From positions 1 to 59,694 of the forward strand of contig CAZYDJ010000003.1 in NCBI GenBank assembly GCA_964646035.1: a stretch of DNA of 59,694 nt, given 5' to 3'. How positions within the stretch are numbered: position 1 is the first letter of the stretch; every line of letters starts with the position of its first letter. Positions 7,924 to 34,751 of the stretch are shown here, one piece after another. The notes below the pieces were generated by a model, which worked only from the letters and a program-made list of their open reading frames with translations, was not told where the DNA came from and did not search any database. Source of the stretch: an uncultured Fibrobacteraceae bacterium (GTDB taxonomy: Bacteria; Krumholzibacteriota; Krumholzibacteriia; LZORAL124-64-63). A program made the translations under genes and the position numbers.

Positions 7924-8298
7924 ATGAAAGACGTTGCACGAGATCGGAGAATCGCGCGAATGAAGCGGCGGGTCCGCGTTCGCAAGCATCTCTCCGGAAC
8001 GGCGGATCGCCCCCGGTTGGCTGTTTTTCGCAGCCATCAGGCGATGTACGCCCAGATGATCGACGATGCGGCCGGCCATACCATGGCTGCCGCGGACAGT
8101 CGCAAACCCTTCGAGATCGAGGTGCCCGAGGGCATCGGCGGCAAGTGCGCCCAGGCGTATCTCGTCGGTCGGGCGATTGCCGATTTGGCTCAAAAACAAG
8201 GTATCGAAACCGTTGTCTTCGACCGCGGTGGCTACCTATATCACGGTCGGGTCGCGGCCTTGGCCCGCGGGGCCAGGGACGGCGGACTGAAGTTCTAG
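7924..8298 (+). CDS. rplR: 50S ribosomal protein L18
   Basis: ...RVRKHLSGTADRPRLAVFRSHQAMYAQMIDD...FDRGGYLYHGRV is the L18 signature. Confidence 0.96.
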   Translation: MKDVARDRRIARMKRRVRVRKHLSGTADRPRLAVFRSHQAMYAQMIDDAAGHTMAAADSRKPFEIEVPEGIGGKCAQAYLVGRAIADLAQKQGIETVVFDRGGYLYHGRVAALARGARDGGLKF

Positions 8299-8330
8299 GT
8301 TAGAGTGGGTTTCAGGACAGGAGCAGTTCG

Positions 8331-9038
8331 ATGACCAACACGGGCAACAACACGGGTCCCAGCTCCGGCGGCAGCCGCCCCGGAGGCCCCGGCCAGCAGA
8401 ACCGCGGCGGTCGCGGCCAGGGTGGTTTCGGCCAGCGTGGCGGCGCACGTCCCGGCGGACGTCCCGGCGGACGCCCTGGTGGGCGCAACGACCGAGGTCG
8501 CGATCGCGATCGAGACATGGTCGATATGCTGGAGACCGTCATCACCATCAATCGAGTGGCGAAGGTCGTCAAGGGTGGTCGCCGGTTCAGCTTCAACGCG
8601 CTCGACACCGGCGGCGACGGCAAGGGCTAGGTTGGCGTGGCCCTCGGCAAGGCGAATGAAATCGCCGACGCCATCCGCAAGGCTTCCGAGGCGGCTCGGG
8701 CCGGCCAGTTCACGGTGCCGATCCTGAACGACACGATCCCTTACGGGGTTGTCGGCAGTTACGGCGCCAGCAAGGTAGTCCTGCGCCCCGCGGCGCCGGG
8801 CACCGGTGTCATCGCAGCCGGCGGAGTGCGTGCGATTCTCGAGGCTTCGGGAATCAAGAACATTCTGACCAAGCAGATGGGTTCGCGCAACCCCCACAAC
8901 GTCTGGAAGGCGACCGTGGACGGATTGCGCCAGCTGCGGTCGGTGCAGCAGGTCGCCGCCAAGCGCGGGATCTCGATCCCCGAGGTGTTCGGCCTGGCTC
9001 CGAAGCAGCCGGCCAAGGAGGCGACGGACAATGGCTAA
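8331..9038 (+). CDS. rpsE: 30S ribosomal protein S5, reading frame interrupted by an in-frame TAG at 8628-8630; Gly/Arg-rich N-terminal extension
   Basis: Track ORFs 8331-8630 and 8637-9038 share one frame. Joined, they read ...[45 protein letters not shown]...PGTGVIAGG...NPHNVWKAT, a full S5. AGGAGC lies 6 nt before the 8331 ATG. Confidence 0.85.
8442..8489 (+). repeat. Four tandem 12-nt units inside rpsE encoding (G-A/G-R-P)x3 + GGRN
   Basis: GGCGCACGTCCC GGCGGACGTCCC GGCGGACGCCCT GGTGGGCGCAAC, read directly. Followed by an (RD)n-coding CGCGATCGCGATCGAGAC. Confidence 0.8.
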
Positions 9039-9213
9039 GCTGAAGATTACCCAGGTGCGCAGCGTGATCGGGCGGCCGGAAAAGCACCGCCGCGTGGTCG
9101 CCGCACTGGGTCTCCGCAAGCGCGAGGCCACGGTCATTCATGAGGACACCCCGGCCATCAGGGGAATGGTTTTCAAGGTGCGCCACCTGGTTTCGGTGGA
9201 AGAGGTGAAGTGA
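9031..9213 (+). CDS. rpmD: 50S ribosomal protein L30
   Basis: [30 protein letters not shown]... Overlaps the rpsE end by 8 nt. Confidence 0.96.
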
Positions 9214-9215
9214 GC

Positions 9216-9665
9216 ATGCTGAAGTTGAACAATATCGGCGCTCCCAAGGGCGCCACGAAGAACCGCAAGCGGCTCGGTCGCGGCCCCGGCTCCGGCCAGG
9301 GCAAGACCGCCGGTCGCGGGCACAAGGGCCAGAAGGCTCGTTCGGGCGGCGGAATTCCTCCCTGGTTCGAGGGTGGACAGATGCCGATCAACCGCCGACT
9401 GCCCAAGCGCGGTTTCACGAACATCTTCAAGAAGGTCTATCAGTTGGTCAACCTGGACCAGTTGAACCGCTTCGAAGAGGGCAGCACCGTCGACGCCTCC
9501 GTCCTGGCGGGTGCCGGCCTGGTCAAGTATCTCGATCGTCCCATCAAATTGCTGGGCCGTGGTGATCTTGAGGCCAAGTCGCTGCAGGTGAAGGTGAACA
9601 AGGCCAGCCAGAGCGCCGTCTCGGCTGTCGAAGGCGCCGGTGGCAACGTCACCGTCGAAGGTTGA
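9216..9665 (+). CDS. rplO: 50S ribosomal protein L15
   Basis: MLKLNNIGAPKGATKNRKRLGRGPGSGQGKTAGRGHKGQKARSG. The track ORF starts 6 nt earlier at a GTG. Confidence 0.95.
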   Translation: MLKLNNIGAPKGATKNRKRLGRGPGSGQGKTAGRGHKGQKARSGGGIPPWFEGGQMPINRRLPKRGFTNIFKKVYQLVNLDQLNRFEEGSTVDASVLAGAGLVKYLDRPIKLLGRGDLEAKSLQVKVNKASQSAVSAVEGAGGNVTVEG

Positions 9666-9713
9666 TCACGGACGTGATTCTATGAAGGCAACGCATTCGA
9701 AAAGGAAGCCGCT

Positions 9714-11012
9714 TTGAACATCACGGGCAGCTACCAGAGCATGTTCAGGATCCCCGAGTTGAAGAGGAGAATCCTTTTCACGGCCATGATCCTGATTGTC
9801 TATCGATTGGGTGGTCACATCACCACCCCCGGCATCGACCTCGAAGCCATCAAGCAGTTCTTCGAGGGCCAGCAGGGGACTTTGGTGGGCCTCTACGATC
9901 TTTTCGCCGGCGGCAACCTGCGTCAGGCGACGATCTTCGCGCTGGGCATCATGCCTTATATCAGTGCGTCGATCATCTTCCAGCTTCTCCAGGCGGTCGT
10001 GCCGTACTTCGAGAAGCTGGCCAAGGAAGGCGACGAGGGACGCAAGAAGATCAACCAGTACACCCGTTACGGGACACTGCTCCTGGCTCTCGTGCAGTCC
10101 TTCGGTATCAGCTTCGCTCTCGAGGGCATGGGCGTCGTCCAGCACCCGGGAATGGCGTTCAAGCTGATGACGATGCTCACCCTGACCACCGGCACGATGT
10201 TCGTGATGTGGCTGGGCGAGCAGATCACCGAGCACGGCATCGGCAACGGGATCTCGCTGATCATCTTCATCGGCATCATCGCCCGTTATCCGACCGACGT
10301 GCTCAACACGATGCAGTCGTTGCGGACCGGCTCGATGCACTGGTTGACCGCGGTCCTGATCATGATCTTCATGGTCGCCGTGATCGCGGGCATCATCGCC
10401 ATCACGCAGGGGCAGCGGCGCATCCCGGTGCAGTACGCCAAGAAGATCGTCGGCCGCCGCATCTACGGCGGAGCCAACACGCATATCCCGCTGCGGGTGA
10501 ACACGGCGGGCGTGATTCCGATCATCTTCGCGCAGTCGATCATCATGTTCCCGGGCACCATCGGCGCGTTCTTCCAGAACAGCGGCGCGATGGAGGCTCT
10601 GGCCAACATGTTCCGGCCGCCGCACCCGGTCTACATCATCGTCTACTCGGCGTTGATCATACTGTTCACGTACTTCTACACCGCCGTGATCCTGAATCCC
10701 GTGGATCTGGCGGACAACATGAAGAAGAACAGCGGCTTCATTCCCGGCGTTCGTCCGGGGCGTAAGACCGCGGAATACATCGATCGGGTCCTGACCCGGG
10801 TGACGCTGCCGGGAGCCTTCTTCCTGGCCGCCATCGCCATCCTGCCGGACCTGATGATCAACTACCTGAACGTGCCGTTCTATTTCGGCGGTACGGGACT
10901 GCTCATCGTCGTCGGAGTCGGCCTGGACACGCTGCAGCAGATCGAGTCACATCTCGTGATGCGGCATTACGACGGATTCATGACGAAGGGCCGTTTGCGC
11001 GCCCGGAGGTAG
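9714..11012 (+). CDS. secY: Preprotein translocase subunit SecY
   Basis: ...FRIPELKRRILFTAMILIVYRLGGHITTPGID...GIMPYISASII... 10-TM pattern. TTG start after AAGGAAG; ATG 9741 is an alternative start. Confidence 0.95.
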   Translation: MNITGSYQSMFRIPELKRRILFTAMILIVYRLGGHITTPGIDLEAIKQFFEGQQGTLVGLYDLFAGGNLRQATIFALGIMPYISASIIFQLLQAVVPYFEKLAKEGDEGRKKINQYTRYGTLLLALVQSFGISFALEGMGVVQHPGMAFKLMTMLTLTTGTMFVMWLGEQITEHGIGNGISLIIFIGIIARYPTDVLNTMQSLRTGSMHWLTAVLIMIFMVAVIAGIIAITQGQRRIPVQYAKKIVGRRIYGGANTHIPLRVNTAGVIPIIFAQSIIMFPGTIGAFFQNSGAMEALANMFRPPHPVYIIVYSALIILFTYFYTAVILNPVDLADNMKKNSGFIPGVRPGRKTAEYIDRVLTRVTLPGAFFLAAIAILPDLMINYLNVPFYFGGTGLLIVVGVGLDTLQQIESHLVMRHYDGFMTKGRLRARR

Positions 11013-25567: not shown

Positions 25568-25698
25568 GTGGAGTCGCCTCCGGAAATAGGGATGGGCGGA
25601 ATCGGAATCAAGGGGCAAACTTAAGGCATTGGGCCGCGCCGCCGCAAGGACGGCCTGTTCGGCAGGGGACGGGATCAAAACCAAAAGCGAGGGACGCA

Positions 25699-26487
25699 AT
25701 GGAGCTGGGACTCGGCGGACGTACTGCTCTGGTGATGGCGGGATCGCGGGGATTCGGCCGGGCGGTGGCCGCCGGCATGGCCGCCGAGGGAGTCAAGCTG
25801 GGGGTCTGCGCCCGGGGGGCCGACGATCTGGCGGAGGCCGAGCGCGCGATCCGGGACGCCGGAGGCGAGGTGCTGGCCCGACCGCTCGATGTTACCGACG
25901 GACCGGCGGTGACCGGGTTCGTGGCCGAAGTGGAGCGCGAGCTGGGCCCGATCGATCTGCTGCTGCTCAACGCCGGCGGCCCTCCCGCGGGCACGCTCGC
26001 GGACATCGACCTGCCGACCTGGGAATCCGCCTACCGTCTCAACCTCGAGAGCATGGTGCGGATGCTGCGCCTGGTCCTGCCGGGGATGCGTCGCCGGCGC
26101 TGGGGAAGAGTGGTCCAGATAACTTCGATCACGGTCCGCCAGCCGGTGGAGAACCTGCTGCTCTCGAACGTGATGCGCCCGGCCGCCCACGCCCTGATCC
26201 ACGATCTGGCCCTGCAATGCGCCGCGGACGGAGTGACCCTCAATTCGGTCGCGCCGGGATTCCATCACACCAGCGCCGTCGACCGCCTGATCGCCCGCAA
26301 GATCGAGCAGGGGGCCGCTTCGCGGGAATCGGTGCTGCAGCAATGGGAAAGCGAGATCCCGGCCGGCCGGCTCGGCAAGGCGGAGGAACTGGCGGCCCTG
26401 GTGTTGTTCCTGATGTCGGAGCAGGCGGGTTATATCACCGGACAGAACATCGTGTCCGACGGCGGATGGACCCGCGGCACTTTCTGA
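25699..26487 (+). CDS. Short-chain dehydrogenase/reductase family protein, non-canonical active site
   Basis: Rossmann ALVMAGSRGFG, NAGG. The region aligned to the catalytic YxxxK reads LLLSNVMRPAAHAL. Confidence 0.75.
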   Translation: MELGLGGRTALVMAGSRGFGRAVAAGMAAEGVKLGVCARGADDLAEAERAIRDAGGEVLARPLDVTDGPAVTGFVAEVERELGPIDLLLLNAGGPPAGTLADIDLPTWESAYRLNLESMVRMLRLVLPGMRRRRWGRVVQITSITVRQPVENLLLSNVMRPAAHALIHDLALQCAADGVTLNSVAPGFHHTSAVDRLIARKIEQGAASRESVLQQWESEIPAGRLGKAEELAALVLFLMSEQAGYITGQNIVSDGGWTRGTF

Positions 26488-26666: not shown

Positions 26667-26755
26667 GCATCCGCTTCATGCGCGGTCGGTGACCGCCCCG
26701 GTAGCGAGGACAAAAAAACCGAATCCGATTCCTGATCCCGATAGAGGTGCCGGAA

Positions 26756-26968
26756 ATGCCGATGTTCGAGTTCGTCTGCAGTGAATGCGGCGAGATATTC
26801 GAGGAGTTGATGAGCCGAGCCGAGGTCGAGGCGGGTAAGGTGGCCTGCCCGAAATGCGGTGGCGCCAAGGTCGATCGCCGGATGTCCGGCTTCGCCACTG
26901 CCGGCGACGCGGGCGGGGGATATGGCGGCGGAGGCTGCGGCTCCGGCGGCTCCGGCGGATTCACCTGA
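26756..26968 (+). CDS. FmdB-family zinc-ribbon protein with Gly-rich C-terminal tail
   Basis: MPMFEFVCSECGEIFEEL...VACPKCGG matches the FmdB pattern (CxxC...CPxCG). Tail is GDAGGGYGGGGCGSGGSGGFT. ATG lies 8 nt after AGAGG. The track ORF begins 9 nt earlier at a GTG. Confidence 0.8.
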   Translation: MPMFEFVCSECGEIFEELMSRAEVEAGKVACPKCGGAKVDRRMSGFATAGDAGGGYGGGGCGSGGSGGFT

Positions 26969-27003: not shown

Positions 27004-27942
27004 TCACCGCCGCGGCAGCGAGAATTTCCGCCGCGGCGTCCGCGGCAGACGCCGCCCCTCTTCGCCGAACATATGGCCCAGCCACAGGATCAGCCCGCCG
27101 AGCAGCAACCCGCCGACGACATCCACCACATAGTGATAGCGGCAGTACACGGTCGCCGCGCCCAGCAGGGTGAACAGCACCGTCACCCATAGCCTGTGCT
27201 TCGGGAAAGACTTCCAGATATGCCACCAGCTGACCATGGTCGCCGCCACGTGGCTGGACGGGAAAGCCGCGCCCAGGATCGCGCCGGTAGAGTGGATATG
27301 CTCCATGATCCGGGTGAAGATCCATCCCGGCACCGCGATCGGCCCGGTGCGGAAGTACTTGGGCCCCCAGGCGGGGAAGAAGGTGTAGAGGGTGTAGCAG
27401 ACCAGCATGACCGCGCCCAGATCACGGATGAACGCCCTCAGAGCCGGCCATCGCTCAGCGTCGGCCAGACCGCGTCCCTTGAGGATGAGGTACATGGCCA
27501 CGCAGGCGAACAGATAGTAGGAGAAGTAGGCGAATTCCATCAGCTCGTGGAACCAGGGCCAGGGCCAGGCCCGCGACCACCTGAGGCTGGGCTGGAAACC
27601 GAAGATCGATTCCTCGAGACTGATCAGCCAGGGATCGAAGGAATCGTGGAAGCCGTGGAAGATGATTCCGAGATGCGCCATCTCGCTGTAGAAAAGCGGA
27701 AACAGCAGGGGCGGATAGATCTCGCCGATGAACTGCAGGATCGTGGGACGGGATCCGCGCAGCAAAGGCGGCAGGAACCACACGGCCAAAGCCAGGGCCA
27801 GGTGCATCAGCAGGTGCAGTTCCGGTTTCGTGCTCACTTCCGGCCTCAGCAGGGGATAGCACCCGCTGCCCACGAGGTAGACCACCGCCCACCGATCGAG
27901 GTCCAGACGGTAGATGGCCAGTTCGGCGAGCTTACGTCGCAT
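27004..27942 (-). CDS. PAP2-superfamily integral membrane protein, IPC-synthase / sphingomyelin-synthase-like
   Basis: Multi-TM. FPSSHVA and YCRYHYVVDVVGG resemble the SGH(T) and HYxxDV motifs of LPP-type phosphotransferases. The start overlaps the upstream gene by 11 nt. Confidence 0.7.
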   Translation of the reverse strand: MRRKLAELAIYRLDLDRWAVVYLVGSGCYPLLRPEVSTKPELHLLMHLALALAVWFLPPLLRGSRPTILQFIGEIYPPLLFPLFYSEMAHLGIIFHGFHDSFDPWLISLEESIFGFQPSLRWSRAWPWPWFHELMEFAYFSYYLFACVAMYLILKGRGLADAERWPALRAFIRDLGAVMLVCYTLYTFFPAWGPKYFRTGPIAVPGWIFTRIMEHIHSTGAILGAAFPSSHVAATMVSWWHIWKSFPKHRLWVTVLFTLLGAATVYCRYHYVVDVVGGLLLGGLILWLGHMFGEEGRRLPRTPRRKFSLPRR

Positions 27943-28960
27943 CCAGCCACCCCGTCTCCAGATAGAAGGTCAACGACTCGCGGAACCCCCGTTCCAGATT
28001 CCGCTTCGCGGCGAATCCCAGTTCGCGTCGTATCTTCTGGCCGTTGCAGACCCAGCCCGGGGCCGTGATGTCGGCCATGCGCTCGCGACCGAGCACCGGG
28101 AAACGGTCTCCCGCCACGGCTTGCAGGACACGCGCCAAAGCCAGCACCGGCGCGGCGGGGATCCGCAGTGAACGCACCGGATGCTCCCAGGCCGCGGCCA
28201 GGGCCGCGGCGACGTCGCGGTGGCTGTACCAATGGCCGTCGTCGATGCAGTAGGGTCCCTGCGCCCGCTCGTCGGACATCAGCAGGACCGCCGCCGCGGC
28301 CGCGTCCCTGCCGTCGACCATCGAGATGCCGGCGACCGGTCCCGGCCACGGGGTCCAGCCCCGGCGCGCGTAGCGGAAAAGGGTCAAGAAGGCGTTGTCG
28401 CGGGGGCCGTAGAGAGCCGGTGGGCGCAGGGCAGTGGTGCGGAAGCCCAGGCTGGAGTCGTGCAGCAGCTGTTCCGCCTCGCGCTTGGAACGGCCGTAGC
28501 CCGAGATGGGGTTCAGCGGCGATCTCTCGTCGACCGGGCTGAGCGGAGAGGCCGGTCCGACGGCGGCCAGGCTCGAGATCAGGACGAAGGATTTCATCCC
28601 GCCGCCGCGGCGCGCGGCGGCGAGCAACAGGCGGGTGCTCGTGACGTTGGCCCGGCGGAATGCTTCCTCGTCCGGCGCCTTGATGGCTCCGGCGCAGTGG
28701 ATCAGATGGGAGGCCCCGTCGACGAAGGCGTCGAGACCGGCCGCGACGGCGTCCGTGTCGGAATCGGCGGTCGGGGCGATAGGAGTCTCGATGATCTCGA
28801 TATCCTTGCCCGCGATCCACCGTCTGTCGCTGGTCGGGCGCACGCTGGCCCTTACCCGGAACCCGCGGTCGAGCAGAGTGTCGGCGATGTGGCTGCCCAG
28901 GAATCCGGTGGCGCCGGTCAGCGCTACCAACGGCCGTTCGGTTCTTGTTTCCACGTTCAT
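27932..28960 (-). CDS. NAD(P)-dependent epimerase/dehydratase-fold reductase (extended SDR); candidate ceramide reductase
   Basis: GATGFLGSHI Rossmann motif, YGRSK catalytic pair. ATGA overlap with the upstream GNAT-like gene. Confidence 0.8.
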   Translation of the reverse strand: MNVETRTERPLVALTGATGFLGSHIADTLLDRGFRVRASVRPTSDRRWIAGKDIEIIETPIAPTADSDTDAVAAGLDAFVDGASHLIHCAGAIKAPDEEAFRRANVTSTRLLLAAARRGGGMKSFVLISSLAAVGPASPLSPVDERSPLNPISGYGRSKREAEQLLHDSSLGFRTTALRPPALYGPRDNAFLTLFRYARRGWTPWPGPVAGISMVDGRDAAAAAVLLMSDERAQGPYCIDDGHWYSHRDVAAALAAAWEHPVRSLRIPAAPVLALARVLQAVAGDRFPVLGRERMADITAPGWVCNGQKIRRELGFAAKRNLERGFRESLTFYLETGWLDAT

Positions 28961-30081
28961 TTCAGCGGCAGGTCATAGACCCGGTAGGTCTTGTACTTGT
29001 CGCCGCCCATGCCCGATAGGATTCTGTTCATCGGCTCGTTGTCCTCGAGGCTCCAACTGCATTCCCCGGAAGTGATCCCGCCCTTGAATCCGGCCTTGAA
29101 CGTGTAGAAGACCAGCAGCACGTCCAGGCCGCGATGCCTGGCCTCGGGCAAAACACCGAGCAACAGCGTGCGGGCGTACTTGATCTTCTTGCGGTTGGCC
29201 AGGAATTTCAGGAAACCGAAGGGGAACAGCCTGCCCTTGCAGGGTTTCAGGGCGATGTTGAAGTCGGGCACCGTCATGCAGAATCCCACCGGCTTGCCCT
29301 TGTACTCGGCGATGGGAATGAAGTGCTTGTTGACCATGCGCTTCATCTCCTTGGCCGAGAAGCGGAACTCCTCGGGATCCATCGGAATGAAGCCCCAGTT
29401 GCCGGACCAGGAGTCGTTGTAGATCCGGCGGATCGTCTCGACCTCTTCGTCGAATCGATCCATGTCGATCGGCCGGATCTTGATGTCGCCGTGCCTTTTG
29501 ATGACGTCGATGCTGCGGGTCACCCGGTCGGGTATCTGCATATCGTCGGCCCGGATGCGCCAGGCCCACAGATCCTTGGATTTGACCAGGCCGAAGGCGT
29601 CGAGATGTTTCTCGTAGTAGGCCGGGTTGTAGGCCATCCCGGTGACCGGCGAAGTCCGCTCTCCCGCAATCTGGATTCCCGGACCGTCGTGGTTGGTCGT
29701 GAAGGAGAGGGGGCCGCGCATGGTCTCCATGCCCTGCTCGGCCAGCCAGTCGCGGGCGGTCTGGAGCAGCGCCGCGGAAGCCTCGGGATCGTCGTCGCAT
29801 TCGTAGAAACCGAAGAATCCGGTCAGCTCGCCGTGATGATCGTTGTGGTAGCGGTCGACACAGGCGCCGATCCTGCCTACGACCTCGCCGTCGCTGCGCG
29901 CGAGCCAGAGCCGGGTCACCGCGTGGGCGTGGAAGGGATTCCGGGCCGGGTCCAGGAACTCCCGCTGCTGCGTGAGCAGGGGACGGACGTAATGGGGGTC
30001 GTCGGCATAGATGCGCCCGGGGACGGCCAGGAAACGTTCAAGATCCTTCTTCCCCGCCACGGGGGATACGCTAACCGACAT
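28957..30081 (-). CDS. GNAT-like acyl-CoA N-acyltransferase fold protein (~374 aa); candidate bacterial ceramide synthase
   Basis: The size and two-lobed sequence (...FFGFYECDDDPEA... and ...LLLGVLPEARHRGLDVLL...) are typical of uncharacterised GNAT-like proteins. Lies between the AOS and the reductase, 21 nt after the AOS stop. Confidence 0.55.
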   Translation of the reverse strand: MSVSVSPVAGKKDLERFLAVPGRIYADDPHYVRPLLTQQREFLDPARNPFHAHAVTRLWLARSDGEVVGRIGACVDRYHNDHHGELTGFFGFYECDDDPEASAALLQTARDWLAEQGMETMRGPLSFTTNHDGPGIQIAGERTSPVTGMAYNPAYYEKHLDAFGLVKSKDLWAWRIRADDMQIPDRVTRSIDVIKRHGDIKIRPIDMDRFDEEVETIRRIYNDSWSGNWGFIPMDPEEFRFSAKEMKRMVNKHFIPIAEYKGKPVGFCMTVPDFNIALKPCKGRLFPFGFLKFLANRKKIKYARTLLLGVLPEARHRGLDVLLVFYTFKAGFKGGITSGECSWSLEDNEPMNRILSGMGGDKYKTYRVYDLPLK

Positions 30082-30102
30082 CTTAGCCTTTCCGGATTGA
30101 TC

Positions 30103-31293
30103 CTACGCGGTGCGGGCCACTACTCCGAGGTCCCGGCCGACCTTTTCCATCAGGTCCATCGCGCGGTGTATCTCGTCCTCGGTGTGGGTGGCCATCAGGC
30201 TGAGCCTGATCAGGGCGCCGCCCTTGTCCACCGCGGGCGATACGACCGGATTGACGAAGACGCCTTCGGCCGCCAGCCGGCGGCACATCTCGAAGGCCAT
30301 TGCGTCCTCGCCGATGACGACGGGGATGATGGGCGTGTCGGAGATGCCGGTGTCGAATCCCGCGCCCTGCAGGCGGTCCATCAGGATCCGGGTGTTGCGC
30401 CAGAGATGGTCCAGGCGCCAGGTCTCCTCGAGCATGACGTCGACCGCGGCCGAAACCGAGGCGCAGGAAGCCGGAGGCATGCTGGCGGCGAACATCATGG
30501 CGCGCGCCACATGCTTGATGTAGTGGATGGTGTCGGCGTCGGAGGCGATGAAACCGCCGACTCCCGCCAGCGATTTGCTGAAGGTGCCCATGATCAGGCC
30601 GATGTCGTCGGTTAAGCCGAAGTGGTCGGAGGTTCCCCGGCCCTGCTTGCCCAGGACGCCGATGCCGTGGGCGTCGTCGACCATGACTATCGCGTCGTGC
30701 TTCTTGGCCAGGCGGACTATCTCCGGAACGTTGGCGATGTCGCCGTGCATCGAGAAGACGCCGTCGACGGCTATCAGCTTGCCGTTGTCGGGGCAGGTCG
30801 ACAGGACGTGGTCCAGCGACTCCATGTCGTTGTGCTTGTACTTCTTGACCTCGCCGAAGCAGAGGCGGGCGCCGTCCAGGATTGATGCGTGATCGGTGCG
30901 GTCGACGATGATCACGTCGTTGCGGCCGACCATGGCGGTGATGGTGCCCTGGTTGACCAGGAAGCCGGCGGTGAAGACCAGAGCGGCCTCCTTGCCGACG
31001 AGCCGCGCCAACTTCTCCTCGAGCTCGATGTGGATGTCGAGGGTTCCGTTCAGGAAGCGGGATCCGGTGCAGCCGGAGCCGTATTTGTCGATGGCGGCCT
31101 TGGCGGCTTCCTTGACCTTCGGGTGGTTGGTCAGGCCCAGGTAGTTGTTGCTCCCGAGCATGATCACTTCCTTGCCGTCGATGCGCACGGTGTTTTCCTG
31201 CGCGGACTCGATAACCCGGAAGTAGGGATATATCCCCGCTGCCTGGAGTTCCTTCGCGGCTGTGAACTGAGCAACCTTATCGAGTAAGCCCAT
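30103..31293 (-). CDS. PLP-dependent alpha-oxoamine synthase, serine palmitoyltransferase-like
   Basis: ...YPYFRVIES...MLGSNNYLGL...GSGCTGSRFLNGT...DDAHG...GTFSKSL (PLP Lys)...ASMPPAS resembles bacterial Spt, KBL and BioF. Start at internal ATG 31293 (MGLLDKV...). Confidence 0.85.
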   Translation of the reverse strand: MGLLDKVAQFTAAKELQAAGIYPYFRVIESAQENTVRIDGKEVIMLGSNNYLGLTNHPKVKEAAKAAIDKYGSGCTGSRFLNGTLDIHIELEEKLARLVGKEAALVFTAGFLVNQGTITAMVGRNDVIIVDRTDHASILDGARLCFGEVKKYKHNDMESLDHVLSTCPDNGKLIAVDGVFSMHGDIANVPEIVRLAKKHDAIVMVDDAHGIGVLGKQGRGTSDHFGLTDDIGLIMGTFSKSLAGVGGFIASDADTIHYIKHVARAMMFAASMPPASCASVSAAVDVMLEETWRLDHLWRNTRILMDRLQGAGFDTGISDTPIIPVVIGEDAMAFEMCRRLAAEGVFVNPVVSPAVDKGGALIRLSLMATHTEDEIHRAMDLMEKVGRDLGVVARTA

Positions 31294-31462
31294 GATTCTC
31301 GCTGATCCTGTTTCAGGGGAAGGCAATGGCGCGTACGCTCCACACCCGGTCGTAATCGCAGGTTTGAAGCTGCCAAAAATAGGCGACCCAGCCAACAGTA
31401 CCAATCTTTTTCCATAGCGGCCAGAGAAATGTCCCCGGCAGCTTTAGGGCCGCTGACAGCCA

Positions 31463-33112
31463 TCAGGGCCGATTGCGCAGCAATCCCCGCGCTTCCCAGG
31501 CTATGAACAGCGCCAGGCAGACCAGCCCCGCCGCGATGGCGGCCATCGACAGGTGGCCGTCGACGATAAATCCCCGCACCTGCCAGCACAGGGCCGCAAT
31601 CGACGTTACCAGCATGAACAGGGCGGGTATCAGAGTGTAGAGCCGCGGCTTGCGCATACCGACCAGCCAGCTCGAAACCACGATCAGCGACAAGGCGGCC
31701 ACCAGCTGGTTCGTGGCGCCGAATAACGGCCAGATCCGGGTGTAGTTGCCGCTGGCTCCCAGCCATCCCGCGGCCAGGACCGTCACCACGGTGGCGCCCG
31801 TCCTTCCGCCGAGCCAGGGAATCCCGCCGCCGAGTTCCTGCATGATGAACCGGGCCAGGCGGGTCGAGGTATCCAGGGTAGTCATGACGAAGGCGTTGAT
31901 CATCAGGATCCCGAAGAACAGACCGGCCTGGGCCGTCACCAGCGGGATTTTTTCGACGACGTGCGACAGGCTGGTGGCGAAGGCCATGATCGCTCCGCCG
32001 CCGCCGGTCATCAGGTTCTGCAGACTGCCCGCCGCGGGATCGGTCGACTGGTCCCAGGGCAGGGCCCCGGCGGCCAGCAGCACGACCATCCCGGCCAGGG
32101 CCGCCTCCAGGATCATCGCGCCGTAGCCGATCTTCATCCCGTCGGATTCGCGGGACAACTGCTTGCTGCTGGTGCCGCTGGCCACGAGGGAGTGGAAGCC
32201 CGAGATGGCGCCGCAGGCGATCAGCACGAAGAGCATCGGGAACATCGGTCCCTGGCCCTGGCCGACGAACCCGATCGTCGCCGGGGCGTCCAGGTGGGGA
32301 TGGGAGACGATCAGGCCGATGAATCCTCCGGCGAGGCCCACGTAGAGGATCCAGGTGCTGATGTAGTCGCGCGGTTGCAGCAACAGCCAGACCGGCAGCA
32401 CCGAAGCCGCCACGCAATAGACCATCAGGATCCAGAACCACAGGGTGATCGCGGGAATACCGGCTACGGCATCCGGCAGTTGGAGGGGGAATGCGCCGCC
32501 GAGGCGGATCAGCAGGGCCAGGATCACCAGAGCGGCCAGGGTCGACGGCATCAGGGGCAGGCGGCCGCGCAGCACGAACCGGCCGAAGAAGGCCGCCAGC
32601 AGGATCAACCCGAAGGTCGGCAGCACGATCTCGGGTTGGCTGATGAAGGTGCGGGAGGTCAGCACGCCGAATACGGCGATGACCAGCACCAATGCGCACC
32701 ACATGAATATCGACATCACGGTGCGGGCGCGGCGGCCGAGCGTCTTCTCGGCGATCTCGCCTACCGAGTGGCCCCGGTTGCGGACCGAAGCCATCAGCGA
32801 CGTGTAGTCGTGGACGGCGCCGATGAATACCGAGCCGAGGGCGATCCAGAGCAGCGAAGCGAGCCAGCCGAAGGTCGCCACGCCGATCAGGGGGCCCACG
32901 ATGGGGCCGGCTCCGGCTATCGAGGAGAAGTGATGTCCGAAAAGCACGGGCGAGCGGGTGGGCTGGAAATCCATTCCGTCCTGCTGCGCCACGCTCGGTG
33001 TCGGGCGGGAGTCGTCGGGTCCGATGAGCCGCCGGGAAATCCGGCGGCCGTAGAAGCGATAGCCCAGCGCCAGCCAGGCGAAGAAGACTGCTCCGATGAC
33101 CAGGGAATTCAT
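31463..33112 (-). CDS. cstA: Carbon starvation protein A family transporter
   Basis: ...PVLFGHHFSSIAGAGPIVGPLIG...GAVHDYTSLMASVRNRGHS.GEIA... is the CstA signature. Internal ATG 33112 (MNSLVIG...). Confidence 0.9.
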   Translation of the reverse strand: MNSLVIGAVFFAWLALGYRFYGRRISRRLIGPDDSRPTPSVAQQDGMDFQPTRSPVLFGHHFSSIAGAGPIVGPLIGVATFGWLASLLWIALGSVFIGAVHDYTSLMASVRNRGHSVGEIAEKTLGRRARTVMSIFMWCALVLVIAVFGVLTSRTFISQPEIVLPTFGLILLAAFFGRFVLRGRLPLMPSTLAALVILALLIRLGGAFPLQLPDAVAGIPAITLWFWILMVYCVAASVLPVWLLLQPRDYISTWILYVGLAGGFIGLIVSHPHLDAPATIGFVGQGQGPMFPMLFVLIACGAISGFHSLVASGTSSKQLSRESDGMKIGYGAMILEAALAGMVVLLAAGALPWDQSTDPAAGSLQNLMTGGGGAIMAFATSLSHVVEKIPLVTAQAGLFFGILMINAFVMTTLDTSTRLARFIMQELGGGIPWLGGRTGATVVTVLAAGWLGASGNYTRIWPLFGATNQLVAALSLIVVSSWLVGMRKPRLYTLIPALFMLVTSIAALCWQVRGFIVDGHLSMAAIAAGLVCLALFIAWEARGLLRNRP

Positions 33113-33143
33113 GCGTATCCTTTCGGCCGCTGCGGGACGGTCC

Positions 33144-33743
33144 CTAGACGGCGGCATCCTCTGCCATGATCTCCGCGGTGAAGATCTGGAATTCGGTTCC
33201 CTCCTCCCGCCAGTCGTTCGCGGACAATCCGGCCTTGAGGGCGAGATGGTCGAGGGTCGTGGGCAGATCCCAGCCCTGTTCGGGGGCGACCTGGGGGAGG
33301 AATACGGCGCGGGCTCCACCTCTGGCGAGCAGGATCCCGTGTCTGCCGATCTCTATGTCCCGGGGACCGGCGACCGAACGCAGCGGGGAGAGCACCGATA
33401 TCTCGATGCGCAGTCCGTCGAGTTCGTCCGCGGTCAGAGGGGCGAAACGGGGATCGCGAAAAGCCGCTGCCAGGGCGTTCTCACGCACGACTTCGATCAA
33501 TGGTGCGATCCCGACGATGGTGCCGATACAGCCGCGCAGGCGGCCGCCGAGGGTCAGTGTCACGAACGCGCCGCGATCCTGCAGCAGGGCCGCGGTGGGC
33601 TCGAATCCGATTCCGGCGGCGTAGGCCTCCGGATCCGGGGGCGGTTCGTCGGCGACGGCGGCGCAGATGGTCTCCCGCGCCAGTTCGAGCAGGAAACGTG
33701 ATTCGGGCGGTGTCAATCCGGGAGCGTCGCCTCGGTCAGTCAT
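33144..33743 (-). CDS. AMMECR1-domain protein (AmmeMemoRadiSam system protein A-like)
   Basis: ...GAFVTLTLGGRLRGCIGT...LSPL...AVFLPQV... are AMMECR1 motifs. Overlaps the upstream MEMO-like gene by 8 nt. Confidence 0.85.
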   Translation of the reverse strand: MTDRGDAPGLTPPESRFLLELARETICAAVADEPPPDPEAYAAGIGFEPTAALLQDRGAFVTLTLGGRLRGCIGTIVGIAPLIEVVRENALAAAFRDPRFAPLTADELDGLRIEISVLSPLRSVAGPRDIEIGRHGILLARGGARAVFLPQVAPEQGWDLPTTLDHLALKAGLSANDWREEGTEFQIFTAEIMAEDAAV

Positions 33744-34632
33744 GATCGTTCTCCTGGCCGCGGCGGAGCGATGTCGCCAGAATCAGGGCGGCGTAGCTCA
33801 CGGAAAGCGAGTAGTCGCCGTCGCGGTCACCGCTGCGGGCGTAGGCCACCCTGCGGGCGCCGCCGCCGGACAAGGGAGCACTCAGCAGGAGCGCGGCCGC
33901 CTCCATCCCGCACATGGTGATGCCGGTCCGGCGGCCGTAGTCGAGCAGGCCGTCGGCGTCCCCGGCGAGCAGCAGTTCGATCGCTCCTGCGTCCAGGTCG
34001 GCCAGGCGTTCGGGCACCCGGTCGGTGAAGGGGACGTAGCCGTATGACTCGCCGTAGTGGGTGAAGTCGCTGGAAACGATGAACAGGCTGCGGCCGTCGC
34101 ACCAGGGAGCCAGCGCGGCGGCGGCCCCGCGGCGCCGGTCCGCGTCCAGATGAGGCACGAGCAGGGGGACCACCTTCAGGCCTTCGCCGAGGACGATCTG
34201 CAGGAACGGCAGTTGGATTTCCACTGAATGCTCCACGGCGTCGGCTTCGGCGTCCGGGAGGAAGAACGGGTCGTCGGCAAGGGCGTCGGCCGTTTCGCGA
34301 TCCACCGGCACGTCGCCCAGAGGCGTCCGGTAGGCGGCGAAAGGCGAGGGGGAGACCATCGTCAGCCAGGCCCGGTGGCTCGGCGCGAGGATGAAGACGC
34401 GATCGTAGCTCAGGCCTCGCAGCAGCCCGTAGCCGGCTCCTGCGACCGGGCCGCTGTAGGCGTAGCCGGCGTGGGGTACCACCATCGCCGTCGGCCGTTC
34501 GTCCGGGTCGGGGGCGGCGGCGGCCGCCAGGTGGGCCGTCACAGCCGCGGCCAGCGAATCCGGGGACGCGGGATACCAACTCCCGGCCAGGATCGCAGGG
34601 CGGACAGCGGGAATTTCACTTCGACCGGACAT
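33736..34632 (-). CDS. MEMO1-family protein (AmmeMemoRadiSam system protein B-like)
   Basis: ...AGSWYPA...VVPHAGYAYSG...ILAPSH...EHSVEIQLPFLQ...SSDFTHYG... ATG 34632 lies 5 nt after GAGGAGG. Confidence 0.85.
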   Translation of the reverse strand: MSGRSEIPAVRPAILAGSWYPASPDSLAAAVTAHLAAAAAPDPDERPTAMVVPHAGYAYSGPVAGAGYGLLRGLSYDRVFILAPSHRAWLTMVSPSPFAAYRTPLGDVPVDRETADALADDPFFLPDAEADAVEHSVEIQLPFLQIVLGEGLKVVPLLVPHLDADRRRGAAAALAPWCDGRSLFIVSSDFTHYGESYGYVPFTDRVPERLADLDAGAIELLLAGDADGLLDYGRRTGITMCGMEAAALLLSAPLSGGGARRVAYARSGDRDGDYSLSVSYAALILATSLRRGQENDHD

Positions 34633-34751
34633 GATCGCCTCCTCGCGGATCACCCGCGGCGCTCGTCCAAAATCGAACGTGAAGCCGCTGGATGCAACCA
34701 GATGTATGAATTAACATTATCTGCGATATCACTTCATGAGTCACCTCAGGC

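Follow-up and report, generated by a model that had tools for sequence, protein, structure and literature searches.

The closest described relatives of the locus reported here are the sphingolipid synthesis genes of Caulobacter and Escherichia coli B and those of the Bacteroidales. In Caulobacter, CC_1154 (CCNA_01212) is the bacterial ceramide synthase bCerS and CC_1164 (CCNA_01222) is the ceramide reductase CerR (PMC11324152, PMC10865984), the latter reported to be periplasmic (PMC11087976). The legend of Fig. 9 in PMC9386255 lists the corresponding genes as 'aca' (CC_1154, yghO ECD_02850, Swit_3908 and others) and 'epi' (CC_1164, ECD_02852 and others), both given as required for dihydroceramide synthesis, and proteobacterial bcerS is said always to occupy a separate transcription unit (PMC11324152). 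The spt cluster is missing from E. coli K-12, and BL21/B strains have one of their own (PMC9386255). Serine palmitoyltransferases (Spt) of the Bacteroidetes/delta type use acyl-CoA (PMC11324152; PMC9386255), and one Spt of Prevotella copri, PcSPT1, makes 3-ketosphinganine in E. coli (PMC10865984). In Bacteroides fragilis, cerS and cerR knock-outs accumulate 3-ketodihydrosphingosine (3-KDS) and keto-dihydroceramide, respectively (bioRxiv 10.1101/2023.05.23.541633). Beyond these organisms, a Black Sea survey reported 1271 metagenome-assembled genomes (MAGs) from 38 phyla that encode Spt-like proteins, in many cases with bCerS and CerR close by (ISME J 2024, PMC11334938). Krumholzibacteria are not named in the main text of that survey or in the supplement examined, and PMC11334938 is silent on any partner of the PAP2 or phosphotransferase kind.

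Here, we describe a four-gene operon from an uncultured bacterium (assembly GCA_964646035.1), located in a stretch of 59,694 nt that was analysed as a whole and is hereafter called the window (the complete contig CAZYDJ010000003.1, positions 1 to 59,694). The operon encodes an alpha-oxoamine synthase (AOS), a GNAT-like protein, an extended short-chain dehydrogenase/reductase (SDR) and an integral membrane protein of the PAP2_3 family. Judged by homology, it very probably produces ceramide along the route known from other bacteria. We also consider it probable that the operon as a whole serves de novo sphingolipid synthesis, in which Spt, bCerS and CerR would lead to dihydroceramide and an AUR1-like protein would then transfer a head group. 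The Spt-bCerS-CerR core is a further case of a known and widely catalogued pathway; the pairing of cerR with a PAP2_3 gene is the one fresh element of the locus.

Operon structure

We established the gene structure of the locus (Table 1), the family membership of its products by homology, and the conservation of their linkage in other genomes. Base-by-base reading of the minus strand placed the spt stop codon TAG ahead of a 21-nt spacer, which contains GGAAAGG and precedes the bcerS ATG. It further showed that bcerS and cerR meet in an ATGA stop/start overlap, and that cerR and the PAP2_3 gene overlap by 11 nt (ATGcgacgTAA). An earlier note on this DNA, made from the letters alone, had described four coupled minus-strand genes at 27004-31293 with exactly these junctions, and direct reading confirmed each of them; the motifs it had listed (SRFLNGT, GTFSKSL, ASMPPAS, GATGFLG and YGRSK) were all found in the translations. 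The spt reading frame is open beyond its ATG to a TTG at 31404, and translation likely begins at the ATG at 31293, because validated Spt homologues align from residue 3-4 of the protein initiated there.

In all four genes the GC content was 0.85-0.86 at third codon positions (GC3) as against 0.41-0.55 at second positions (GC2). Each of the four proteins gave a Pfam match above the curated cut-off, and hundreds of homologues were found for each of the two proteins that were searched, the GNAT-like and the PAP2_3 protein. Combined with the recurrence of the cluster described below, these properties identify four real genes rather than chance open reading frames (ORFs).

The first gene encodes a probable serine palmitoyltransferase of the Bacteroidetes/delta type

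The best NCBIfam match of the AOS was NF047600, the serine palmitoyltransferase model of the Cytophaga-Flavobacterium-Bacteroides (CFB) type (588 bits), ahead of the models for the BioF/Kbl subfamily (431 bits), Kbl (401 bits), BioF (383 bits) and ALAS (258 bits), whilst the beta- and alpha-proteobacterial Spt models scored 381 and 320 bits. Among PDB sequences, the SPT of Sphingobacterium multivorum (3a2b/8guh, 459.5 bits) led by 135 bits, followed by a Thermus Kbl/BioF enzyme (324 bits), E. coli Kbl (285 bits) and the Sphingomonas SPTs (272-285 bits). The protein also carries PF00155 (201 bits). Alignment to the validated PcSPT1 extended over the full length at 50 % identity (E 6e-146), with one-to-one correspondence of the GTFSKS-type catalytic-lysine motif, DxAHG and SRFLNGT; identity to rhodobacterial-type Spt was 33-36 %. 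A neighbour-joining tree, computed without bootstrap, grouped the AOS with PcSPT1 and Spt-like genes of other phyla, with proteobacterial Spts as sister and with Kbl and BioF outside.

The Spt assignment proposed in the earlier note is upheld by the best NCBIfam and PDB scores (NF047600 and S. multivorum SPT), by the identity to PcSPT1 and by the tree. That note had also named a grouping with Kbl/BioF or with the cysteate-C-fatty acyltransferase CapB as the outcome that would speak against Spt; neither grouping appeared in the NCBIfam and PDB scores, nor, for Kbl and BioF, in the tree. A Kbl/BioF identity was ruled out on those scores and the tree, and a sulfonolipid (CapB) identity on the PDB scores (238 bits as against 459.5 for SPT). 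By homology, the first gene is a serine palmitoyltransferase of the CFB/delta-proteobacterial type, which would condense its substrates using acyl-CoA. The window contains no acpR or aasR gene, which fits an acyl-CoA-using enzyme of this type.

Ceramide synthase and ceramide reductase candidates

The GNAT-like protein carried a weak Pfam GNAT domain (PF00583, 29.9 bits) and had no match in NCBIfam or among PDB sequences. The silence of NCBIfam is uninformative, because E. coli YghO itself is likewise unmatched and the database holds no model for bCerS; there is none for CerR either. Reference relatives of both families came from PLSDB, where a tblastn search yielded E. coli YghO and an N-acetyltransferase of Sphingomonas parapaucimobilis. 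BLASTP aligned residues 1-370 of the GNAT-like protein to YghO at 35 % identity (235 bits, E 7e-79), and the N-acetyltransferase of the Sphingomonas sphingolipid locus was also 35 % identical (E 4e-71). An AlphaFold (AF2) model with a mean predicted local distance difference test (pLDDT) of 88.9 displayed a tandem-GNAT fold, and its structural matches were of the MshD or glucosamine N-acetyltransferase kind (2wpw, 5kf1 and MshD, E 1e-11 to 5e-14).

In the E. coli record NZ_MG591698.1, yghO lies divergently beside genes for a fatty acyl-AMP ligase, an epimerase-family protein, an acyl carrier protein (ACP), a class I/II aminotransferase and lptF/G paralogues, and in the Sphingomonas record NZ_CP155753.1 the acyltransferase gene is five genes from a unit encoding an NAD(P)H-binding protein, an ACP and an aminotransferase. 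The lptF/G paralogues stand beside spt in both records, which fits the title of a 2026 preprint on Lpt-like sphingolipid transport. Several PLSDB 'plasmid' records with a full sphingolipid cluster also contain genes of the core chromosome (glc operon, obgE, proB) and look like chromids or mislabelled chromosome fragments. Full-length homology to YghO, the tandem-GNAT fold and linkage to spt agree with the bCerS relationship suggested in the earlier note. On sequence grounds, the second gene is a member of the bCerS (YghO/CC_1154) acyltransferase family and a ceramide synthase candidate, with N-acylation as its presumed reaction.

The extended SDR carries PF01370 (89 bits), with GATGFLG at residues 15-21 and a YGRSK motif whose YxxxK pair corresponds, in the alignment, to YANSK in the E. 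coli CerR-type protein. It was 31 % identical to the epimerase-family protein of the E. coli aasR-cerR-acpR-spt locus (E 6e-35), 30 % identical to the Sphingomonas protein encoded upstream of acpR-spt (E 8e-35) and 28 % identical to a homologue in Bacteroides finegoldii (E 2e-43). These three proteins scored higher than the best NCBIfam model (HpnA, 85 bits) and the best PDB chain (70.7 bits), and HpnA was also the sole NCBIfam match of the E. coli CerR-type protein. As the earlier note had proposed, the SDR is a relative of CerR, given its homology to the cluster reductases of E. coli and Sphingomonas and to the B. finegoldii protein, and the alignment of the Rossmann and YxxxK motifs. The third gene is accordingly placed in the CerR family as a candidate ceramide (3-keto) reductase.

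The order in which these two enzymes would act has an alternative, namely the eukaryote-like order in which the SDR first reduces 3-ketosphinganine to sphinganine and the GNAT enzyme acylates afterwards. Olea-Ozuna et al. proposed such an order for Caulobacter, and in Bacteroides thetaiotaomicron it appears to run by means of a separate KDSR. The window SDR shows no N-terminal signal peptide, its Rossmann motif beginning at residue 12, so that it could act in the cytoplasm beside Spt; the E. coli and Sphingomonas homologues also open directly with the Rossmann motif. Against this stand the reported periplasmic location of Caulobacter CerR and the intermediates that accumulate in the B. fragilis knock-outs, which by analogy are the functional anchor both for the CerS and CerR families and for acylation before reduction. 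The gene order spt-bcerS-cerR-PAP2_3 mirrors acylation followed by reduction, which is weak evidence in the same direction. We regard reduction before acylation as rather unlikely in this operon.

The fourth gene encodes an AUR1-like membrane protein

The PAP2_3 protein matched PF14378 (55 bits) and PAP2 (31.2 bits, cut-off 27.2) and fell just below the threshold for PAP2_C (26.2 bits, cut-off 27). Residues D103, Y139, Y183, P190, G193, P194, F227-P-S-x-H231, Y266, H270, Y271, D274 and G278 were invariant in an alignment of 15 cluster-linked homologues drawn from several phyla. They include the His-His-Asp core (H231, H270 and D274) of the C2 (SxH) and C3 (HxxxD) motifs, whilst neither a C1 K...RP motif nor a C3 arginine was conserved in this alignment. 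The C1 motif KxxxxxxRP and the C3 arginine bind phosphate in hydrolytic PAP2 enzymes, and a His-His-Asp core without them is the usual pattern in AUR1/SMS transferases, not in hydrolases.

Comparison of the PAP2_3 profile with PDB returned yeast AUR1 as the best match (E 4e-7), aligned over profile positions 62-280 (approximately 220 positions). PgpB, LpxE and acid phosphatases matched only the last ~70 residues, corresponding to the C2-C3 region. The AlphaFold (AF2) model (pLDDT 84, predicted template-modelling score 0.85) gave the same picture: the top Foldseek matches were inositol phosphorylceramide (IPC) synthase structures (9vj4_A, E 4.9e-4, template-modelling score (TM) 0.54/0.59; 9ivc_A, TM 0.58/0.55), with Bacillus subtilis PgpB (TM 0.37) and human SMSr (TM 0.34) further down. 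Profile and fold thus agree on AUR1 as the best PDB match along the whole length, in line with the IPC-synthase likeness noted earlier. Arginine and lysine are abundant at both termini and in the short loops at 62-66, 155-160 and 246-250, so that under the positive-inside rule the catalytic residues are predicted to lie on the periplasmic face. Taken together, remote homology, motif pattern and recurrent linkage make a candidate AUR1-like ceramide phospho-head-group transferase the best reading of the fourth gene.

The main rival to this reading is that genes 1-3 make dihydroceramide and that the PAP2_3 protein is a lipid-phosphate phosphatase that trims or recycles phosphorylated intermediates, possible substrates being ceramide-1-phosphate, sphinganine-1-phosphate and phosphatidylglycerophosphate. 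Public annotation labels the protein 'phosphatase PAP2 family protein', the C2/C3 His-His-Asp core is common to PgpB and LpxE, which are also among the profile and fold matches, and phosphorylated substrates are plausible as bacterial ceramide and sphingoid-base kinases exist (PMC10331486, PMC9045371). The short C-terminal extent of the phosphatase matches, the highest TM for AUR1 and the missing conservation of the phosphate-binding C1 motif and C3 arginine nevertheless argue for a transferase, and there is no kinase gene in or near the operon. A phosphatase role consequently appears unlikely.

Recurrence of the cluster and of the cerR-PAP2_3 pair

To place the operon in a wider context, we scanned one genome per GTDB species with an alignment of the GNAT-like protein. 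At least 591 species matched, and the best 80 loci, all from MAGs, were analysed for neighbours within 8 kb of the GNAT gene. These loci represented Krumholzibacteriia, Eisenbacteria, Zixibacteria, Latescibacterota, Gemmatimonadota, Acidobacteriota, Ignavibacteria, Bacteroidota, Calditrichia, Binatia, Bacteriovorax and others. An Spt homologue was present in 62/80 loci and lay immediately upstream of the GNAT gene on the same strand in 52, and a CerR-like SDR was found in 47. PAP2_3 genes occurred in several gene orders in 17 loci; all four genes were present in 14 of the 80, and six showed the exact gene order of the window. Two relatives at 53 % and 60 % GNAT identity carried the same four genes in the same order, whilst a relative at 45 % carried all four in a rearranged form. 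The operon is therefore a recurrent unit rather than an oddity.

Where a PAP2_3 gene was present, it tended to accompany the reductase: in 10 of the 17 loci the SDR gene was followed by the PAP2_3 gene on the same strand. Searching PLSDB by tblastn with the SDR and PAP2_3 proteins revealed the same pairing in Bacteroidales. In B. finegoldii (NZ_OY725910.1), a CerR-like SDR gene (7992-8999) overlaps a PAP2_3 gene (8990-9955, UHF62_RS05335) by 10 nt, an arrangement that resembles the one in the window. The latter gene, annotated as 'phosphatase PAP2 family protein', encodes a PAP2_3 protein that was 26 % identical to the window protein (E 1e-12), with the motifs AAFPSSHV and HYVxD common to both. 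This B. finegoldii protein is not an orthologue of BT_1522, since it had no NCBIfam match. Adjacent SDR and PAP2_3 matches were also found in Prevotella sp. oral taxon 299 (NC_022111.1, 1338200-1340131), whilst Parabacteroides distasonis carried the SDR with no adjacent PAP2 gene.

This recurrent pairing makes PAP2_3 a candidate ceramide phospho-head-group transferase and, by sequence, makes the cerR-paired protein of B. finegoldii a candidate phosphoethanolamine dihydroceramide (PE-DHC) synthase. As a tentative extension, the cerR-coupled PAP2_3 proteins may form an orthologous group of bacterial ceramide phospho-head-group transferases that is distinct from BT_1522 and extends from Bacteroides and Prevotella to Krumholzibacteria, Eisenbacteria, Gemmatimonadota and Acidobacteriota. 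Such a group could possibly include the long-missing PE-DHC (ceramide-phosphoethanolamine, CPE) synthase or a phosphoglycerol-ceramide synthase, and its active site would face the periplasm, where CerR reportedly acts. Our literature searches, outside which Stankeviciute 2022 lay, returned no paper in which a PE-DHC/CPE synthase of bacteria is identified or in which PAP2 is connected with dihydroceramide from bacteria.

Proposed pathway and evidence against it

We infer a route whose catalytic activities, amino-acid and acyl substrates, reaction order, gene 4 transferase activity and head-group identity are all proposals drawn from these comparisons. Spt would condense serine with acyl-CoA to give 3-ketosphinganine, the tandem-GNAT bCerS of the YghO family would N-acylate this product, and the extended-SDR CerR would reduce the 3-keto group with NAD(P)H to yield dihydroceramide, the order of the latter two steps being taken from the Caulobacter/B. 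fragilis model. The PAP2_3 protein would then most likely move a phospho-alcohol head group from a glycerophospholipid onto the C1-OH of ceramide, releasing diacylglycerol and forming a phosphosphingolipid. Phosphatidylethanolamine (PE) and phosphatidylglycerol (PG) are the usual bacterial donors and would be the likeliest here. The window contains no gene for an inositol-phosphate synthase, phosphatidylinositol (PI) synthase or CDP-alcohol phosphatidyltransferase, so the head group need not be inositol.

Several observations weigh against this proposal. The AOS did not reach the NF047600 equivalog cut-off of 640 bits, a miss that is expected because the lineage lies outside Bacteroidota. The link to Caulobacter is indirect, as it runs through the E. 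coli and Sphingomonas orthologues given in PMC9386255 and not through CCNA_01212 and CCNA_01222 themselves. Genes of the YghO/bCerS family lacked spt within 8 kb in 15/80 species loci and were also present on Roseomonas, Pseudomonas, Klebsiella and Diaphorobacter plasmids in PLSDB; because members occur without nearby spt and on plasmids, the family may not be restricted to ceramide synthesis. The Roseomonas genes adjoin genes for an NTP-transferase or a dATP-pyrophosphohydrolase. For the fourth gene, PAP2 proteins are most often phosphatases, and 63/80 loci, and thus most spt-bcerS clusters, had no PAP2_3 gene. The only NCBIfam match of the window PAP2_3 protein, the PI-dihydroceramide synthase model NF052609 (BT_1522), scored 20 bits against a cut-off of 480, and the likeness to AUR1 is remote (16-18 % identity, TM 0.54-0.59, root-mean-square deviation ~7 Å).

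A non-serine substrate (alanine, glycine or cysteate), by which the operon would make 1-deoxyceramide-like lipids or sulfonolipids of the capnine/sulfobacin type, is improbable: Spt-clade enzymes can take alanine and 1-deoxyceramides are abundant in nature (PMC11334938), the AOS falls under the Spt equivalog cut-off and its substrate choice is not readable from sequence, but CapB scored far below SPT, no cysteate synthase gene was found among the neighbours scanned, and the head-group step implied by the conserved PAP2_3 needs a serine-derived C1-OH.

Genomic surroundings and lineage

The window also carries ribosomal-protein genes, secY, rpoA, fabH, lipopolysaccharide (LPS) genes and genes of the type IX secretion system (T9SS) type, and therefore belongs to the core chromosome of a diderm bacterium. 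Those few homologues that bore a name (53-66 % identity) came from Candidatus Krumholzibacteria/-iia, and the host is a diderm of the Fibrobacteres-Chlorobi-Bacteroidetes (FCB) group related to Candidatus Krumholzibacteria.

Scans for sigma-70-type promoters gave no site on the operon strand upstream of spt, and a terminator scan gave nothing usable on that strand. The region upstream of spt contains a single TAnnTTTG box, the Bacteroidetes-type -7 element, at 31374-31381 on the minus strand, 81 nt before the ATG. This box occurs only three times in the whole window, which is no more than expected by chance and represents no enrichment. A second copy lies at 25616-25623 (minus strand), just upstream of the probable true metG start, and the placements hint at FCB-type promoters in this lineage.

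Genes for Memo-like, AMMECR1 and CstA proteins precede spt on the same strand (Table 1). Memo and AMMECR1 keep their position upstream of spt in three Krumholzibacteria-like relatives (L001, L004 and L018), and in L001 they are fused and abut spt; the Memo/AMMECR1/CstA/spt arrangement may reflect lineage synteny or a longer transcription unit. At the other end, a short zinc-ribbon ORF converges on the operon, and L001 has a PF09723 Zn_ribbon_8 gene at the equivalent place. Classical SDRs can serve as 3-ketosphinganine reductases in Bacteroides (BT_0972), and a FabG-like classical SDR gene near the operon end was considered as a pathway member; it was dropped as probably unrelated, because relatives do not keep it in this position beside the cluster.

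Table 1. Genes of the proposed sphingolipid operon and neighbouring features in the window
Feature	Position	Strand	Size	Remarks
FabG-like classical SDR (adh_short_C2)	25699-26487	+		Near operon end
Zinc-ribbon ORF	26747-26968	+	73 aa	CxxC...CxxC, glycine-rich tail; converges on operon end, 35 nt from PAP2_3 stop
PAP2_3 integral membrane protein	27004-27942	-	312 aa	AUR1/IPC-synthase-like
Extended SDR (cerR candidate)	27932-28960	-	342 aa	
GNAT-like protein (bcerS candidate)	28957-30081	-	374 aa	
AOS (spt)	30103-31293	-	396 aa	Likely start ATG at 31293
Intergenic region upstream of spt	31294-31462	-	169 nt	After cstA stop; possible promoter region
CstA gene	31463-33319	-		Directly upstream of spt, same strand
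AMMECR1 gene	33144-33743	-		Upstream of spt, same strand
Memo-like gene	33736-34653	-		Upstream of spt, same strand

Comparison with known systems

The locus is a clean and compact example of a bacterial ceramide pathway in a candidate phylum for which we know of no cultured, lipid-profiled members, and a single fragment would suffice to transfer it to E. coli. It is chiefly valuable as a lead, namely an AUR1-like gene that recurs beside cerR across several phyla, Bacteroidales of the gut and the mouth among them. Phosphoethanolamine dihydroceramide is ubiquitous in these Bacteroidales, and the cerR-adjacent PAP2_3 gene bears on the search for its synthase.

The first three proteins belong to the same families as Spt (CC_1162), bCerS (CC_1154) and CerR (CC_1164) of the Caulobacter/E. 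coli B pathway. Unlike that pathway, the window lacks a specialised ACP (acpR) and an acyl-ACP synthetase (aasR), and its Spt represents the CFB/delta type, not the rhodobacterial one. The position of bcerS inside the operon, between spt and cerR, also differs from the arrangement in Proteobacteria. Head-group addition in Caulobacter proceeds via the CpgABC/ceramide kinase route, whereas the window encodes a PAP2_3 protein. Among Bacteroidales (Spt BT_0870 and PcSPT; CerS BF9343_4218; CerR BF9343_4240), the likeness extends to the closest validated Spt, at 50 % identity, and to the CerR-like SDR gene followed by an overlapping PAP2_3 gene in B. finegoldii; this SDR comparison rests on the B. 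finegoldii homologue and not on the BF9343 proteins. The three core genes lie apart from one another in isolates of Bacteroidota (PMC11334938), whereas they are collinear and translationally coupled in the window.

The fourth protein resembles the AUR1/BT_1522 synthases in its PAP2_3 family membership, in its His-His-Asp C2/C3 core without the C1 motif and in its multi-pass membrane architecture. It differs from them in its low sequence identity and its position outside the BT_1522 equivalog, and from AUR1 in having no Kei1-like partner. The earlier note had regarded the collinear arrangement as tidier than in the model organisms. This holds for those organisms but not overall, since spt-bcerS(-cerR) clusters are frequent in lineages other than Proteobacteria and Bacteroidales and their co-localization has been published: like the window, the Black Sea survey clusters combine Spt-like, bCerS and CerR genes in uncultured lineages (PMC11334938).

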